Shown: in pieces, positions 38,176 through 54,570 of the stretch
Layout: each line of letters begins with the position of its first letter
Position numbering within the stretch: the stretch's first letter is position 1
Assembly: GCA_963695875.1 (NCBI GenBank)
Contig: CAVOID010000011.1
Span: 64,001-128,000 of the forward strand
DNA length: 64,000 nucleotides
Origin: an uncultured delta proteobacterium
GTDB taxonomy: Bacteria > Desulfobacterota > Syntrophia > Syntrophales > UBA2185
Direction of reading: 5' to 3'
Translations under genes and position numbers: made by a program
The notes under the pieces: model-generated
What the model saw: the letters and a program-made list of their open reading frames with translations, nothing else
What the model was told of the DNA's origin: nothing
The model's database searches: none

Positions 38176-39546
38176 ATGACGCAGGAAGTCGTCGCTGCTT
38201 CAAATCAGATCGTTATGGGACCGGCGTTCTGGATTGCGACATCAATTTTTATTCTTGCTTACGCCCTGATCGTATTGGAGAAGATCCATAAGACCACCAT
38301 TGCTATCTTCGGGGCGGCCCTGATGATTGTTCTGGGCATTGTAACCCAGGACGATGCATTCCATTCGACCGAACTGGGAGTTGATTGGAACGTGATCTTT
38401 CTCCTCGTAAGCATGATGACCATTATCAATATCATGAAGCCTACCGGTGTGTTTGAGTACATCGCTATCAAGAGCGCCAAGGCGGCAAAGGGGAAACCGT
38501 TTATGATCATGGCGATATTTTCTGTTGTGACGGCTGTTCTCTCGGCTTTTTTGGACAATGTCACGACGGTGCTCCTGATCGCTCCGGTAACGCTTCTCAT
38601 CTGCCAGGCACTTGGAGCTTGATGTCGTCCCATTTCTCATTACGGAGGCCTTGCCTCCAACATCGGCGGGACGGCAACCCTCATCGGCGACCCGCCGAAC
38701 ATCATGATCGCCTCGAAGGCCCAACTGGACTTTATGGCATTCATTTACCATCTGACGCCGGTCATTATCATTACCATGATCATATATATCATTACCCTGA
38801 AGCTGATATTCGGAAAAAGACTGACAGTAAGAGAGGACTTGCGGCAGCGTGTCATGGCCATGGATGAAAACGAAGCGATTAAAGATCCGGTGCTCCTGAA
38901 AAAATCCCTTGTTGTCCTGGCGGTGACGATGACGGGATTTGTCTTCCATGGGATGCTCCATTTGCAGCCTGCAACGATTGCCTTTGTCGGTGCTGGGCTA
39001 CTTCTCCTGGTTTCCGGGATCAAAGAACCTCATCACATACTTGCCGAGGCGGAGTGGGGAACTCTCTTTTTCTTCATAGGGCTGTTCATTATCATCGGAG
39101 GAGTCATCAAGGTCGGCCTCATCAAGTGGCTGTCCATTCAGGTATTGGAGATTACCCAGGGAAACATGTTCGCTACGAGCATGGTCGTCATGTGGTTTTC
39201 CGCATTTGCCTCGGCAATTGTCGATAATATTCCCTATGTGGCTACCATGAACCCGTTGATCATCGATATGGCGAAACAGCTCTGGCCGAATCTTTCCGGC
39301 ACTGAGCTTTTACATCATCCGGATTTAATGCCTGTCTGGTGGTCGTTGGCACTTGGCGCATGTCTGGGCGGAAACGGAACGGCCATTGGAGCCTCCGCCA
39401 ATGTTATTGTCGTCGGCATGGCGGAGAGGATGGGCTATCCCATATCGTTCAAGAAGTTCATGCTCTACGGGATGCCGTTTATGATCCAGACAGTTATTAT
39501 CAGCATGATTTATGTCTGGCTGAGGTATTATGTGTTGAATATTTAA
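38176..39546 (+). CDS. ArsB/NhaD family ion transporter (frameshifted near 38620-38660)
   Basis: SAFLDNVTT, NIGGTATLIGDPPN, SAIVDNIP, LGGNGTAIGASAN. Confidence 0.9.
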
Positions 39547-39811: not shown

Positions 39812-40189
39812 ATTTACGTTTCGCTTTAATTAATCGGCATTCAGAACTATGGATTCTGGAGTGCTATCAGAGACTACAGTTCAAATGGTAATCTTCACTC
39901 CAATTTCAAAAATGAAAGTTACTGCTTTGTAGGTGTAGCAAATGCTATCCTTTTTATCTCGTTCTTCCTGAAGTCTTGTTTTTCTAATTCAGCCAATATA
40001 TTCATTATTTCATATGGTAAACATTATTTATTCCACAATGAAAGATGCCGGTAGGCTAACCGTCATTATGCAGGAGGTACTCACGATTCTAAGATATTTC
40101 GAGGGTTGTAATCATATTATTCCCGATTGTCATATCACGGCGAATGTTTATAAAATATTATGGGTCATATTTTACTGAAAGGAACGTTT

Positions 40190-42827: not shown

Positions 42828-43596
42828 TGACAACAAGCTCACCCGGCGTAGTCTCATGACGCGCCTTCTTGCCGGCGCAAGCGTAGTGGTGCTTAGCGGC
42901 TGCGAAAAACTTTCGGAAACCACCTGGTTTCCCAAGGTGTTGGGTTTAGGCGAAAAGGCTACGTATAAAATTCAAAGGCTGGTCCTGCCGCGCAAAGCGA
43001 TGGCGCAGGAATTCACAGAAACCGACCTGTCACCGCAATTCCGCAGCAACGGGACATCAATGCCGAATAATCCAACATACATGGCGCTGGCAGCCAAAGG
43101 ATTTACGGACTATCGCCTCGAGGTGGGCGGTCTGGTTGAACGGCCCATGACTTTTTCGCTTGCCGACATTCGAAAGTTTCCCAGTCGCACCCAGATAACG
43201 CGCCATGATTGCGTTGAGGGGTGGAGCGCAATAGGCATGTGGAAGGGGGCGCGCCTCAGCGCGCTGCTCGAAGCAGTACATCTGAAGCCCAATGCCCGTT
43301 ATGTCGTTTTCCACTGCGCAGACCCGATGGAAGAAGATGGCAGCTCCCCCTATTACGAGAGCATCGACCTGGAAGACGCTTTTCACCCGCAGACGATACT
43401 CGCTTATGAACTGAACGGCAAACCATTGCCAATCCAGAACGGCGCACCGCTTCGCTTGCGATTGGAGCGGCAGCTTGGCTACAAAATGGCGAAGTATGTC
43501 ATGCGCCTTGAAATCGTCGAAGATTTTTCCGGGATAGCCGGGGGGAAAGGGGGTTACTGGGAAGACCAGGGATACGAGTGGTATGCCGGCATCTAA
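42820..43596 (+). CDS. Molybdopterin-dependent oxidoreductase (sulfite oxidase/MsrP-like), Tat-exported
   Basis: TRRSLM Tat motif, HDCVEGWS, NGAPLRL, GYKMAKYV, GYWEDQGY. Confidence 0.88.
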   Translation: MSDDNKLTRRSLMTRLLAGASVVVLSGCEKLSETTWFPKVLGLGEKATYKIQRLVLPRKAMAQEFTETDLSPQFRSNGTSMPNNPTYMALAAKGFTDYRLEVGGLVERPMTFSLADIRKFPSRTQITRHDCVEGWSAIGMWKGARLSALLEAVHLKPNARYVVFHCADPMEEDGSSPYYESIDLEDAFHPQTILAYELNGKPLPIQNGAPLRLRLERQLGYKMAKYVMRLEIVEDFSGIAGGKGGYWEDQGYEWYAGI

Positions 43597-43910
43597 GAAG
43601 TCCTGACAATAACACGGAGGATAGTTTCAAGAGCATCATCAACGGGTCAGGAATAGGGACATCCTTTACATATTTACATTTGCAAAATGGATCATATGAT
43701 TCTTCATGATCTATCTCAATCCCGCGGGTGAATCAAAACCGCGCCAACAATCCACAATGTAGAGCATTTCAATCGATAATCTTCATTATCCACTTCATGG
43801 TGATGTTCACACTTTGTAGGTGCTATACGTAACAAAATGGTGATTGCAACTTAGGTTTATTAGGTTCATCATCTATCTGTATTTCCTATTGAATCACAGG
43901 AAAGGAGATA

Positions 43911-45080
43911 GTGATGGACCAGATGGCCATAGAAAATTGCAGTATCGTTTCAGCGAAAGAATCCCTGCCGGAATTTGGAATCAATGATCGACAGGCAGGG
44001 TTTCTCCCATCCATTATTTTACCCGAGATCTATAGAGGAAAATCAGGGAAGGTAGTTTATCCTGCGTACACGCAGGAGGCAAAAGCTCTTCACTGGGCAT
44101 TGGATCGCCTTGCAGGCTGGGAATTGCCGGGCAAAGAGCATGTTGAGGAATATTTTCGGAGCATGTATCGGCGGAACTTCCGACCGAGGACATACGCCAG
44201 TGCTCTGACTGCTATTTACGACTTCCTCACCGGTGTCAGGGATTCGGGAAAGACCTGTCTGGAAGAGATCACCAAGCGTGACATTGAAGCTTTTATTGAA
44301 CATGAGCAGGATCGCGGTTTGATGCTATCGACGGTGCGGACGAAACTGCACTGCGTCAATGCTTTTTTGGGTTATGCGATTGACGCAGGGGTTGTCAGCG
44401 CTGATGTCCTGGCAAGAAGGATTCGCCTGAAAAAGCCCGAGACATTGCCGCGGGCCATGGATCCGGACGATGTGAAGCAATTACTCTCCGTTATCGATAA
44501 TCCGAGAGACCGGGCCATGATCATGGTTCTTTTACGGACGGGGATGAGAATCGGCGAGCTGCTCAACACCAAGATGCAGGATCTTCACCTCAGGGATCGC
44601 AGGATTGATATTTACGAGGGAGAAAAGAACCGGCTAGGGACGGGTTGTTTATCTCAGTGATGATGCGATGAGTGCTTTGAAGGCATGGCTCAAGATGAGA
44701 GACGCCTCATAAGGAGTTTCTCTTTTACGCCACAGGGCAGGAAAAGCATGTCCTATAGTACGGCCCATCTTATCTTTGAACAGTATCTCACGAAAGCCGG
44801 TCTTACCCATAAGGGGTATTCCCTTCATGCGCTTCGGCATACCTTTGCCAGTGAGCTTCTCAATGCCGGCATGCGGATCGAGTGTCTTCAGCCGTTGATG
44901 GGGCATACCTCTCTGGATGTGACACGGCGCTATGCCCGGCTCACGGACAAGACCAGGGAGGAAGAGTACTTCAGAGCCATGACGATTATAGAAAGGGGGG
45001 AGATTGATGGCCATTACCGATGCGATCATCAGGTACAGGCGTTTCTTGAAGAGAAGGAACGTCTCACCGAATACCGTTAA
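43911..45080 (+). CDS. Tyrosine recombinase A (frameshift near 44640)
   Basis: LLRTGMRIGE, GEKNR, HALRHT, LMGH, TRRYA catalytic set. Confidence 0.88.
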
Positions 45081-45901
45081 GAACTATTTGAACGGCCTGA
45101 AACATTTTGTTCTCTGGCTTGATGTGCCGATCGAGGAAGCCACATACCGGAAGATTATTGCGTATATGGATTATCTCGCTCGGCAAACGGTTAAAGCCAA
45201 AGACGATCAACTGTTATCTCAACAGCGTATGTCAGTTTTATCACTACCTCTCGGAAGAAGAGGAAGTCCCGATCGTCAACCCGGTGAAGAAGCCGAATAT
45301 CATGAAGCTCCCCAGGGGACTTCCCAAGCATCTGAAAGACGAGCAGATAGAGATCCTCTTCAAGAATCTGAAAGGGCCAAGGGATCGAGCCATGTTCATG
45401 ATTATGCTCCGATGCGGATTACGGGTGGAAGAAGTGGCCCATCTTTCCCTCGGCAACATTGATCTTAAACGCAGAATCCTGCTTATCCAGGACGGCAAGG
45501 GCGCCAAGGATCGGATTGTCTATATCAGCAACGATGCCCTTCCTGCTCTCCTGGAATATCTCAGGGTGAGACCGGCAAATAAAGTAAAAAAGGTCTTTCT
45601 GGTAGAGAAAGGGCCTCTTACCGGACAGCCTATATCCATTCGCGGCATCCAGAAACGGATGGAATATTATGCCCGCAAAACAAACCTGAGAATCTCCTGT
45701 CATCATCTTCGCCATACGATGGCCACACAGATGTTGAATGCCGACACCGATCTCTCTACGATCCAGGATCTCCTGGGGCACAACTCCATCAGAACAACGC
45801 AACGTTACTGCCGGATATCAAACCCGAAAGTACGAAGGGATTACTTCAAAGCCATGGAGGTCATCATGCAACGAACGGCTGGCAACCCAGATAATCCTTG
45901 A
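45007..45901 (+). CDS. Tyrosine recombinase B (frameshift near 45180)
   Basis: CGLRVEE, GKGAKDR, HHLRHT, LLGH, TQRYC; overlaps recombinase A by 74 nt. Confidence 0.88.
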
Positions 45902-46231
45902 CGAAAGAACAAAACTATGAAATCTTAAACACAACTTAACACATTAATATCAATAGGAAATACAGATTATGTTACGTATAGGTAGGTGAACTAACAACAA
46001 CCCCCGTTTTACCGCTTCCTTCCTATTATTCACGAATCGCCAACCTAAATGAAGATGGAGGGTTTCAACCCGTAATCGTTCATGTTGTTTAATTAATTAT
46101 TATGATATGAATTATAGAAATCTATACTTTCGGTTCTGTGAGAGCTTGGGGCCTCCCAGAGTATCTAGGCGTCTATCTCGGTTGGCGATCCGTAGCCGCA
46201 CCATATATTAAAAACAATAGCAGTTTAAGTT

Positions 46232-46857
46232 ATGAAGATTTTTAATAAAATATTAAGCTATAAAGATAAATATAATCTTAAGAAAAAATTAGTTGAAATA
46301 GAAAAACAAATAGATCACACCTATAAGCCAGCCAAGGATATTTGTTTGTCAATTGTGCAGGCAGCAGAAAATTGTAAGCTGATTTTAAGAACAGACTTGG
46401 GTTTTGAAGATAAAAAGAAAAAGACCTTGCTGAAATGTTGGTATTTTATGAGTACCTTTATTTTTTCATACATCTAACACTAAGATTAGCATTTGGTAAA
46501 TTTACAGAAACACAAATAAAGAAATTGCGAGAATATATGGGGCCGGTAATTGTTGGCGCCGCAATTGATTCATACACAATGGATTGGCCAAAAGATTTGA
46601 AAGAAGGTGTGAAAAAAGAATTTTATGACAAATTAAACCAGGCTGAGCTTGAATATTCAGAGTGCAAGGTTATATTAGACAGGGATAGACCATTTTCCGA
46701 TAATGCTCTGTTTACTAAATTAGCAAAAAATATAACAGAGCTTACGGGACATAATAATAATCCGTTAAAGATAGTAGAAATAATATTAACATCAATAGAA
46801 GAATATGCGAAAATGGATTTGAATAAGTTAGTAGATGAGGCAGCAAACACATTATAG
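46232..46857 (+). CDS. AT-rich hypothetical protein (frameshift near 46430)
   Basis: Two overlapping ORFs (46232-46477, 46435-46857) separated by an A-run; no recognisable motif. Confidence 0.55.
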
Positions 46858-46973
46858 CAAGGCAGTCGACCGGGCAGCCTCATAGCCGCCGATGAGTTTA
46901 GTCGTGTATTTCAAGTCGTAATCATCGGTAGAATATCATCACATGAATTAAGGACTTGTAGATACCGTTCTTG

Positions 46974-47943
46974 TCAAGCGAAAATTGGCTTATAATTTGG
47001 ATCATACATTTTCCCGGATTTCAGGACTCCAAAGATAACGTGAACCAGTTTCCGCATAATCGCACAGACAATCACTTTCCCATTTTTGCCTTTATCTTTT
47101 AGGCGGTTATAAAAAGCGATCATAACAGGATTGCATTGAATCGATACCAATGCCGGCATGTACAGGGCTTTCCTGAGCCGTGCATGTCCGATTTTGCATA
47201 ATCTGGGTTTGCCTTTAATAGATGATCCTGAGAGCGTTTCCTTCGGTGCGAGTCCGATGAATGCCACCATTTCACGAACATGGTTGAATTTTTCCAGATC
47301 ATCTAATTCTGCCAGGATGTGAGGAATGGTTACCTTACCAATAGCGGGAATAGAATCCAGCAAATCCTTTTTCCGTTTAAGATTTGGATTTTGTCCTATC
47401 AGATCGGCAATTTGTTTTCTGATTTTTTCAATCTCCTGATCCAAATAAGCGATATGTTCTTTGATCAAAAGAGATGACAGATTCATGTGCCGTGCTGATC
47501 CGATTCTTCTCCTGGCTTCGCATGTCGATCAGGCTATCAACCCGTCTGACCAGAGCTCTCAGGGATCTGATCTCCGGTGAAGGTGGAATCCATGCACCTG
47601 GTTTCATAGCCAGACAGAACCGGGCAATCAAGGCGGCATCAAGCTTATCCGTCTTGGTGCGAATCAGTTCACTCTGAGCAAATCCCTTGATCCGGGCGGG
47701 ATTGACAATGCTGACAATGTGGCCGGCTTCATGAAGATAGATCGCCAGATCCTCTCCATAGTTGCCCGTGGCTTCCAGACAGGCATGGACCTTTTGAATT
47801 CCCTGTTTCTCAAGCCAGAGCCTCAACGTCTCAAAACCTTCTGCCGAATTCTTGCAGGTCTTATGTTTTGTCTTCCCATCTACAAGAAGTGCGGCATCGA
47901 ATTTCTGTTTCGCAATATCTATCCCAAGAACCGATACTGACAT
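46974..47943 (-). CDS. IS110 family DEDD recombinase/transposase (frameshift near 47470)
   Basis: LGIDIAK, CLEATG, KTDKLDA (RuvC-like DEDD); SGSS catalytic Ser; LRKALYMPA, MRKL. Confidence 0.93.
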
Positions 47944-50990: not shown

Positions 50991-51611
50991 ATGGCAAAGC
51001 AAGGCAAGACTGTCCATCTACAAAAAGGAGACGCCCTGTCGGTAACGGATATGCAGAATGATTTTTTGCCGGGAGGGGCTCTTGGCGTTCCTGATGGGGA
51101 CAAGATTATTCCTTATGTGAATCGTGCTGTAGCGTTATTTAAAAAAAACAGCCTCCCGATTTTTTTCACCCGGGACTGGCATCCGCCCGATCATTGCTCC
51201 TTTAAAGACCAGGGAGGGCCATGGCCTCCCCATTGCGTTCAAAATACAGCAGGCGCCGATTTTTCCTCCGAACTGAATATTCCGAAAGGATCCACCATCA
51301 TATCGAAAGGCTCGGAGAAGGATAGTGAGCAATACTCAACATTGGGGGGACGGGATGCAGATGGCAATACGGAGAACGGTCTAATGAAAAAATTAGGGAT
51401 CAGGAGGATATTTATCGCCGGTCTTGCTACCGATTATTGTGTGCTGAATTCCGTAAAGGATGCACTGGCCGAAGGCTACGAAGTTTATGTTCTAACCGAT
51501 GCGGTCCGCGCCGTGGATGTAAACCCGGGTGACGGGGAAAGAGCACTGGAAGAAATGATTCGGGCGGGAGCGAAAACTATAACGTCTGAAGAGCTTCGAG
51601 AAAGAAAATGA
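50991..51611 (+). CDS. pncA: Nicotinamidase
   Basis: DMQNDFLPGG, DWHP, WPPHCVQ, GLATDYCV. Confidence 0.9.
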   Translation: MAKQGKTVHLQKGDALSVTDMQNDFLPGGALGVPDGDKIIPYVNRAVALFKKNSLPIFFTRDWHPPDHCSFKDQGGPWPPHCVQNTAGADFSSELNIPKGSTIISKGSEKDSEQYSTLGGRDADGNTENGLMKKLGIRRIFIAGLATDYCVLNSVKDALAEGYEVYVLTDAVRAVDVNPGDGERALEEMIRAGAKTITSEELRERK

Positions 51612-52946
51612 ACCTATTAACCAGCCCGCTTTTGACCGATCTTTACCAGTTGACCATGATGCAGGGGTATGTGGACAGGGGTATGCACGAAGAGGCGGTC
51701 TTTGAGTTTTATGTCCGCAGCCTGCCAAAAGCCCGCGGTTTCCTCGTATCGGCCGGTCTTGAAACGCTGCTTACATATCTGGAAGGTTTGCGATTCTCTG
51801 AAGAGGAACTAAAATACATTGCAGGTACGGGCAGGTTTTCGAAAGCCCTCTTGGATTACCTGGCAAAATTCCGCTTCCGCGGTGATGTTTACGCCATGCC
51901 GGAGGGGACGGTCTTTTTTTGAAAATGAACCTGTGGTGCGCGTTGTCGCCTCCATGCCGGAGGCGCAACTCATCGAGACCCGCCTGATTAACATCCTGCA
52001 TTTCGAGATCCTTATTGCAAGCAAAGCGGCCCGTTGCATCTTAGCAGCGGACGACAGGGCCATTCTGGTTGATTTCGGACTGCGACGGGCGCATGGTGCT
52101 GAAGCAGGCCTCCTGGCGGCCCGTGCCTCATACATTGCCGGATTTGCAGGGACGTCAACCGTATTGGCAGAATCCCTCTTTGGGATACCGATATCCGGAA
52201 CGATGGCCCATTCCTATGTTGAGGCTCATGAAAATGAATTGGAGGCGTTTCTAAGTTTCGGCGAGTCAAATCCTAATAATACAACCCTTCTTATTGATAC
52301 GTACGATGTCCACAAAGGTGCAGAAAAAGCAGTTGAGGCGGCAAAAAAACTAAAGGAAAGAGGAATAAATGTTCGCGCTGTGCGCCTCGATAGCGGTGAT
52401 TTGCTTGCCCTGTCAAAGGATGTCCGCCAGATCCTTGACCGCGGTGGTTTGACAGACGTCCGTATCTTCGCCAGCGGCAATCTTGATGAATACCTCATCT
52501 ACGATCTAATGTCCCAGGGAGCGCCGATTAACGGCTTTGGCGTAGGCACGAAGCTCGACACCTCCGAAGACGCGCCATACCTTGAATGTGCCTACAAACT
52601 AATGGAGTATGCGGGCACGCCCAGATTCAAAAAATCACAGGGAAAAGCCACCATCCCGGGACGCAAACAGGTCTTTCGCGAGTTCAAAGATAAAATGATG
52701 ATCAGGGATATTTTGACTACTGAAGGAGATGAGGCAGAGGGTGTCCCTCTTATTGAGAAGGTAATGAGCGGCGGCCGGAGGATATCCTGGCCTAAGGGTT
52801 TAAAAGAGATTGCAATGTATACCCGATCACAATTGAAATCTTTGCCTTCGCATTTCAAGGCCCTGGAAACAAAACCCGCGTATCCCGTTAAAATCTCTCC
52901 CGCGTTATCCAGACTCAAAAAAGAAATCGAGCGGCAGGAACGTTAA
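51608..52946 (+). CDS. pncB: Nicotinate phosphoribosyltransferase (frameshift in T-run near 51915)
   Basis: LLTDLYQLTM, DFGLRRAHG, GTMAHS, LIDTYD, RLDSGD. Confidence 0.92.
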
Positions 52947-52964: not shown

Positions 52965-54570
52965 CTATTTCTTTAAGTGACGCTGCAATGCCGCGTTAAT
53001 AAATTTACTGAACAGCGGATGGGGGTCAGTCGGCCGTGATTTAAATTCGGGATGAAACTGGCATCCCAGAAACCACGGGTGGTCTTTGATCTCCACAATC
53101 TCAACCAGACGGCCGATCGGGAGATGTTCCTGTAATATGGAGCCCCTTTTCCACAAGGATATCCCTGAATTTGTTGTTTACTTCATAGCGATGTCTGTGT
53201 CTTTCACTGATTTCACTGATACCGTAAGCATCAAAGGCGAATGATTCATTCTCTAAAAGGCAGCTATAGGCCCCCAGTCTCATGGACGCGCCCATTTCCG
53301 TAATACTCCTCTGCTCGGGCAGAAAATCGATCACCGGATACGGTGTCTCCTGGTCAAATTCGGAACTGTTTGCTTTTTCAAGGTTGCACACATGCCGGGC
53401 AAATTCCACAACGGCAAGCTGCATCCCCAGACAAATGCCGAAATACGGGATGCGATGCTCACGGGCATATTGAATAGCGGTAATCATCCCCTCGATGCCC
53501 CTCTCTCCGAATCCGCCGGGTACAAGGATGCCGTCGGCACCGTCCAGATGGTGGTCGAGTCCTTCCTTTTCAATCTTTTCCGAATCGACGAAACGCAGGT
53601 TTACCCGGCAGTTGTTGGCGATGCCCCCATGCACCAAAGCCTCATTCAGGCTCTTGTAGGAATCAGTCAGGTTTACATACTTGCCCACTATGGCGATGCG
53701 CACTTCATTGGTGGGATGCTTAATCTTACTTACCACTTCCTCCCATGCCTCGAAGTGGGGCCGGCCTGTCCATATGTTTAAGAGTTCTACAATCTTTTCA
53801 TCCACTCCCTCTTTATGAAAAACGAGGGGCACTTCGTAGATGCAGCTTACATCCTTTGCCGTAAATACGGCAGCGACTTCTACATTGCAGAAAAGAGCAA
53901 TTTTAGCCTTGATATCTTCCGAGAGAAAATCTTCCGTGCGGCACAACAGGATATCCGGCTGAATACCGATTTCGCGCAGGGCCTTGACACTGTGCTGGGT
54001 CGGTTTTGTTTTAACTTCCCCGGCAGTCTTAATGTAAGGGACCCAAGTCAGGTGGATGAATATGGCGTTTTCCTTTCCTGCTTCATTGCGAAATTGTCTG
54101 ATCGCTTCCAGGAAGGGCAGGCTCTCAATATCCCCGACAGTTCCACCGACTTCAATGATAGCAACATCGAAGCCGCTGGCACAGCTCTTGATAAAATCTT
54201 TGATTTCATCGGTAACATGAGGGATAACCTGCACCGTCTTTCCCAGATAGTCACCCCTCCTTTCTTTTGTAATCACTGAAAAATATACCTGACCTGATGT
54301 TAGGTTGTTGCATTTCCCCATCCGGGTAGAGGTAAACCGTTCATAGTGCCCCAAATCCAGATCTGTTTCCGCACCGTCATCGGTCACAAAGACCTCGCCG
54401 TGCTGAAAGGGGCTTAGTGTTCCCGGATCGACATTAATGTATGGATCCAGCTTTTGATTGGTAACCCTGAGACCCCGGCATTCAAGAAGGGCTGCCATTG
54501 AGGCTGCCGCCAGTCCTTTACCGAGGGAAGAAAGAACACCACCGGTTACAAAAATAAATTTTGTCTTCAT
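52965..54570 (-). CDS. pyrG: CTP synthase (3' frameshift)
   Basis: [35 protein letters not shown]. Confidence 0.96.

Follow-up and report, generated by a model that had tools for sequence, protein, structure and literature searches.

In the window, the 64,000-nt stretch of DNA analyzed here, an element of 2159 bp occupies positions 43823-45981 between two copies of the heptamer GTAGGTG. The left copy (43816..43822, + strand), a candidate crossover region, forms the last bases of a repeat module termed T2, and the right copy (45982..45988, +) is the candidate carried spacer of this element lineage. Next to these 7-mers lie the terminal core sites, the arms of an inverted repeat matching at 15/16 positions (43823..43838, +, and 45966..45981, -), and further inside is a second pair of arms (43875..43892, +, and 45950..45967, -) complementary at all 18 positions. 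The first 11-12 bases of the left core hardly varied among 43 distinct left ends. On the right, related ends elsewhere in the genome diverged exactly past 45981, 23 right ends with GTAGGTG had differing contexts beyond it, and four public sequencing runs yielded contigs of related elements, in which five loose ends fell at 45988. The arrangement of inverted repeats with a flanking 7-mer was found once in the window and in none of six shuffles of it. A sequence-only reading of this DNA had already described the terminal and inner inverted repeats, adjacent at the right end and separated by about 40 bp at the left; both pairs are confirmed, but the right arms overlap by 2 nt and the left separation is 36 nt. 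This gap is filled by a predicted σ70-type promoter (43844..43872, +; -35 TTGCAA, 17 nt, -10 CATCAT), and the left inner repeat follows the -10 box and precedes the ribosome-binding site. Since -35 and -10 boxes spaced by 16-18 nt, with the inner repeat directly downstream, were present in 35 of the 43 distinct left ends, the asymmetry of the ends is most simply explained by a promoter. To judge from its position, the left inner repeat is probably a second binding site and an autorepression operator.

The element contains two overlapping tyrosine recombinase genes on the + strand, A (43914..45080) and B (45007..45901, overlapping the end of A). Protein A consists of a variable N-terminal extension, a core-binding domain and a catalytic domain, and is 332-400 aa long in intact relatives. 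Protein B is 297 aa long in close relatives and 293-351 aa in the family when called from the first start codon. Among the 53 rows of the complete-copy table in which both ORFs are intact, the catalytic residues R212, K238, H304, R307, H330 and Y339 of A were invariant (53/53), as were R139, K164, H232 and R235 of B, while H258 and Y267 of B were found in 52/53. Alignment of the window copy with three intact relatives revealed four extra single bases, three in gene A (44636, 44704 and 44734) and one in gene B (45177). These bases were absent from the contigs of related elements in the four public runs. As a result, H-R-H-Y of A do not share the frame of R and K, and the N-terminal domain of B is out of frame. 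The genes and the complete R-K-H-R-H-Y sets reported by the sequence-only reading are thus real, and all six residues can be read in each protein, but neither gene is an intact ORF and neither set lies in one frame. Elsewhere in the window, a frameshift interrupts the CTP synthase gene close to its end, and the reading frame changes within 6 of 16 other conserved genes, indicating that the assembly is indel-prone. Frame-split genes, including those for CTP synthase and an IS110 transposase, are located at 53101-54570 (-), 51608-52946, 38176-39546 and 46974-47943 (-). The four frameshifts of the window copy are probably assembly errors. Because four in 2.1 kb exceed the background of the assembly, the copy may nevertheless be dead.

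Comparison with other genomes showed that the window element is one copy of a widespread 2.1-kb family. The table of complete copies had 57 rows, one of them a duplicate, leaving 56 distinct insertions of 2046-3346 bp (median about 2150 bp). Element DNA matched 24 of 61 related genomes (E 0.001) and 51 of the 301 genomes of the order (1e-30), and a profile of protein A matched 17 of the 401 genomes of the phylum. When one genome per species was scanned, 56 loci were obtained, distributed among Syntrophales, Smithella, Desulfobacterales, Thermodesulfovibrionales and unclassified Deltaproteobacteria, which makes the host a Syntrophales-type bacterium. Searches for close relatives were negative on plasmids, where the best matches were 24-34% identical, and in viral contigs, where full-length matches were at most 31% identical among the 80 loci listed. 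Within its own genome the window copy had no second full copy, only truncated right ends. Three right ends belonging to other duo lineages stand alone at G000:C4:122338-122525, C10:11826-11865 and C7:about 42912-42935, cut short on their inner side and each next to the 7-mer of its lineage.

Two outcomes had been named beforehand as refuting a cargo-free transposon of two recombinases: a third gene in the homologs, and boundaries that vary among copies. Neither was observed: in lineages with protein identities of 43-100%, the boundaries at both ends agreed to the base, and a third recombinase was found in 0/56 distinct complete copies. No ORF of at least 100 aa followed gene B in these copies, the sole exception being L079, and lowering the floor to 80 aa (37 rows) added only one ORF, of 83 aa. 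In L079 (L079:2117-3280), a 387-aa cargo gene without a Pfam match lies between gene B and the right end.

These counts also bear on the proposal that the element is a deletion derivative of a RIT or Tn554-type element that has lost its third gene. RITs do have tandem recombinase genes that overlap and inverted repeats at their termini, in the available text of PMC3414803, and unequal flanking 6-7-mers occur in Tn554 and SEs, in that of PMC10214605. However, neither a third recombinase nor a TnpC-sized gene was present in the 56 copies, and A has one core-binding domain, not two. In the phylogeny that the sequence-only reading had proposed, A and B each formed a clade (support 100/100) and were grouped as sisters with moderate support (85/82), apart from RitA, RitB, RitC, an actinobacterial Tn554-like pair, IS91-linked integrases and XerC/XerD. 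RitA/B/C in this tree are three plasmid trios labelled by gene order and size, and its Tn554 side is the actinobacterial pair only; a query with that pair returned no staphylococcal TnpA. The duo proteins were 22-34% identical to all references. A deletion origin is therefore largely refuted, and we give it next to no probability. With the NCBIfam models for XerC, XerD and XerA, the duo proteins scored at best 117-208 bits, all below the cut-offs of 220-335. The host genome has its own XerC and XerD, and the duo genes are multicopy and patchily distributed. The predicted fold of A is a single core-binding and catalytic unit with a disordered N-terminus of 50 aa (pLDDT 72 for the alignment-based model, 44 from the single sequence), and the nearest folds were XerA, Tn1549 Int, IntI and XerH.

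A profile search also detected about 15 protein clusters of 600-700 aa that contain two recombinase units. In the tree, the halves of these fused proteins joined the duo proteins in a group of 49 rows (SH-aLRT 93). One fused gene is the only gene in a unit of 2066 bp (L245:1422-3487) that has terminal repeats of its own but no equal 7-mers at its flanks. In one other phylum, the fused form was found in 1 of 301 genomes. Examples of fused two-unit recombinases, with chains of 640-700 aa, are P0138, P0153, P0161, P0169, P0173 and P0200.

Further copies and an empty site, which the sequence-only reading had proposed to look for, were both found. Two elements in genome G019 (L006 and L027) were identical over 2156 bp and lay at unrelated sites. 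In genome G190, complete copies numbered at least six and fell into two types; four of these copies differed from one another by 2-10 bases. Within 10 kb of this genome (L306, G190:C21:39800-51000), three duo elements with two spacer types were observed. The empty site (L098) has both flanks of the window copy contiguous around a single 7-mer, GTAGGTA. In a metagenome contig (L038), a right end, a 7-mer and a left end were followed by a complete element, and the 7-mer at this joint equaled that at the right flank of the element. This is the order of ends expected for the circle junction proposed from the window copy, and the L038 joint may represent a circle or a tandem dimer; it may also be an assembly product. 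It was the one true right-left junction among nine matches in a scan of metagenomes with the junction pattern. The other eight were two elements beside a core-like target, two left ends beside one, and four palindromes. No right-to-left joint was present among the joints listed in contigs of the four public runs. In the palindromes (L032:1092-1118, L034:1913-1939, L039:780-828 and L040:1669-1695), the duo core surrounds a 7-mer and no recombinase gene lies close by; they are possibly relics.

The direct repeat of GTAGGTG around the element had been noted from the window alone. The repeat is present, but the comparison with other copies speaks against a duplication. Four spacers dominated the 72 left and 88 right ends, namely CTTCCTG, GTAGGTG, CACCTAC (the reverse complement of GTAGGTG) and CAAATAC, and the 7-mer was fixed per lineage. 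If it were an ordinary target-site duplication, generated by staggered cuts at a preferred sequence, equal 7-mers would be expected as they were seen at 47/56 copies, together with a single 7-mer at the empty site. The remaining 9/56 copies, however, had unequal 7-mers with up to four differences and the lineage 7-mer kept at the right end, the L038 junction carries a 7-mer, and the element encodes no DDE enzyme, so that we regard a duplication as very improbable. The 7-mer instead looks like a crossover or overlap sequence shared by element and target.

The positions of the deviating bases bear on how such an overlap would be used. Deviating left ends differed at positions 1-5 in 8/9 cases and deviating right ends at positions 6-7 in 5/5 (Fisher p 0.003 from a hand-sorted table, in which ends of unknown lineage and four ends at a third core are left out; as the copies are related and kin are not independent, this value overstates the difference). 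Mismatched left ends kept as few as 2-3 matching bases. This distribution suggests that mismatches are tolerated only away from the element end and that homology is kept beside it. Right-end deviations, all single mismatches, could be later mutations. When only complete copies with unequal 7-mers and a known lineage are counted, the deviation was at the left end in 6/7 and one was reversed (binomial p 0.125). Elements of G190 that share 85% identity in both proteins had 7-mers differing at 5/7 bases, and each 7-mer had its match at the sites of its own element; the tree also shows two origins of CACCTAC. Both observations favor a spacer carried by the element over read-out of the target by the proteins. 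Because the spacers are mostly congruent with the protein tree (4 changes, minimum 3), a protein preference may contribute.

The sites occupied by the elements were not random. A profile detected 104 non-overlapping repeat-module sites in the host genome (E below 0.1) and none in the reversed genome. The modules of this non-coding junction repeat are of two kinds: T1 is CTTCCTG, 37 nt, then TTTCAANCGGTAATC, and T2 is TTTCAANCGGTAATC, about 34 nt, then GTAGGTG. The window element is located at the 7-mer of a T2 module (43761..43815, +; profile match 43761-43832, E 3e-8), and homologs of the 43761-43815 site without an element were found on contig C8 of the same genome and in six related genomes. 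Beyond a 26-nt linker on the other side lies a decayed T1 module (46009..46082, +) with a weak profile match (E 0.43) and the motif at the expected distance. Further modules in the window are T2 at 39873-39945, T1 at 39954-40027 and T2 at 46903-46974. A T1-T2 pair in the window brackets a six-gene block with genes for redoxin, CueP, cytochrome b561 and molybdopterin oxidoreductase. Right of the element, between T1 and T2, is an orphan block of low GC (46232-46857, about 0.30) that contains a 140-aa ORF without a Pfam match.

With a motif matrix built from the repeats of the window genome, the motif was detected at a fixed distance on the expected side in 54/60 duo flanks and on the other side in 5/58 (5% threshold); counted per main spacer, the motif-bearing flanks were 13/16, 13/13, 24/27 and 4/4. 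The description of the locus as a transposon holds, with the correction that insertion is site-selective and not random. The exact T1 pattern occurred 3-42 times per genome in 21 genomes carrying the family, 87 and 105 times in two others, and 0-4 times in controls. Dense repeat arrays were seen in L361, L362 and L365. No Rfam match was found for the repeats in 43.5 kb. In 17 T1 sites, no pair of covarying arms of the attC type exceeded shuffled sequences and the folding z score was about -1, and an attC-like (integron) hairpin for T1 was rejected.

Given this preference, the duo recombinases might themselves build and reshuffle the junction-repeat arrays, the element being the mobile integrase of a cassette system. 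Several features would fit such a role: duo ends adjoin both terminal 7-mers of the repeat, four ends (L008, L024, L095 and L119) adjoin an apparent third, central core, and short relics of the duo core form linkers between repeat modules (L316 and L313). The repeats, moreover, form polarized arrays around one to several genes, with 55 neighbors on the same strand versus 8 on the opposite strand and 93 versus 33 for the ORFs between them. On the other hand, genome G054, which is 98% complete, has 105 exact T1 patterns without a duo DNA match; none of its three core-pattern matches is a duo end, and no duo-like protein was found there among the five recombinase loci read of 12 matches. Conversely, G049 has a full element and no exact T1 pattern, and the repeat arms resemble the duo core only weakly. 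Since G054 has 105 repeats and no duo element, targeting of the repeats is likelier than building them, and we consider the cassette-enzyme role unlikely. Across five repeat-rich genomes, no shared recombinase family was found among 30 loci read of 82 matches. Most likely, the duo elements exploit a repeat system that is run by something else.

Taken together, we think it probable that the element is an autonomous, IS-sized tyrosine recombinase transposon that carries a 7-bp spacer and targets pre-existing junction repeats. The promoter inside the left end would drive two co-translated Xer-like recombinases, which would bind the terminal core sites and join the right end to the left end across the 7-bp spacer, producing a circle. 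The circle junction would then recombine with a degenerate chromosomal core site, whose weak arms read outward about WARTC.W.AA, provided that the carried and target 7-mers share homology, at least 2-3 bases beside the exchanged strand. We infer the final step from the chemistry of tyrosine recombinases: a single strand would be exchanged at the homologous side, and the reaction would be finished by replication or repair. The targets would be repeats already present at junctions between variable gene blocks, with lineages locked on different 7-mers of the repeat. A more far-reaching reading, which we offer as a doubtful but conceivable extension, makes the duo a minimal integrase of two proteins, directed to its target by a 7-bp spacer that it carries and that can be exchanged. 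Its family would then provide the enzyme still lacking for an undescribed integron-like system of gene shuffling, built from double-stranded core sites that number at least 100 per genome in some Syntrophales. Sister elements have both recombinases fused in one polypeptide.

This is a real minimal tyrosine recombinase transposon that has apparently not been described. In agreement with the suspicion that such elements are poorly described, our search of mostly open-access literature, ISfinder and TnCentral lying outside it, found no published description of a two-recombinase element. RIT, BIM and Tn554-like pairs are described in Van Houdt 2012 (PMC3414803), Smyshlyaev 2021 has no duo subgroup in its available text (PMC8138268), and Idola 2023, likewise in the text available, surveys five groups of tyrosine recombinase transposons (PMC10214605), beside which the duo would be a sixth, smaller architecture. 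Duo elements have been missed because their proteins are annotated as XerC/XerD. According to the accessible parts of these studies, transposition of RIT and GInt was not reproduced in the laboratory (PMC10214605), and circles of RIT could not be established in Nielsen 2017 (PMC5737581). Because its ends are exact, its spacer is defined and its target is known, the duo makes the movement of multi-recombinase elements testable with two genes. If the carried 7-mer sets the target, the element would offer a compact insertion tool. The duo also marks where crossovers fall within a large system of repeats in the accessory DNA of syntrophic bacteria.

As far as the accessible text of the cited papers goes, RITs are the closest in layout, being cargo-free sets of overlapping simple tyrosine recombinases with catalytic motifs and terminal inverted repeats, present in several copies per genome (PMC3414803; PMC8138268). 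They differ in having three genes in about 3.5 kb, whereas all 56 duo copies have two in 2.1 kb; the duo proteins fall outside RitA/B/C, and the duo has a defined 7-bp overlap and target repeat. SE and GInt elements share with the duo two catalytic tyrosine recombinases and short imperfect terminal repeats, and in SEs the spacer of the element is found at the right junction and that of the target at the left, a fingerprint and footprint that the duo 7-mers may resemble (PMC10214605). In contrast to the duo, however, the SEs of that survey require IntA, Tfp, IntB and Srap, use 6 bp, have a median size of 15.7 kb with cargo, occur in Gammaproteobacteria and copy their left flank, while the right-end 7-mer of the duo is constant within a lineage (PMC10214605). 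The SE/GInt core genes Tfp/GinC and Srap/GinD were absent from complete duo copies. Tn554 also combines tandem tyrosine recombinases with a 6-7-base footprint, and some actinobacterial pairs lack TnpC, but one Tn554 partner exceeds 600 aa whereas both duo proteins are Xer-sized (PMC3414803; PMC10214605). The duo further differs from Tn554 in its near-perfect terminal repeats, its separation from the clade of the actinobacterial pair and its lack of tnpC. XerC/XerD resemble the duo as two paralogous simple recombinases with only a core-binding and a catalytic domain; the duo is distinguished from them by scores below all NCBIfam cut-offs and by its location on a mobile unit beside the XerC and XerD of the host. 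IS1202 and ISAba32 use DDE chemistry. They are likened to the duo by their behavior, as compact insertion sequences that home to recombination-site-like repeats (xrs/pdif) bounding gene modules, but in the part of that report available their insertions lie at a distance of 5 bp from the site and come with a true duplication of 5 bp (10.1101/2022.12.17.520857), whereas the duo element would recombine at the 7-mer itself.
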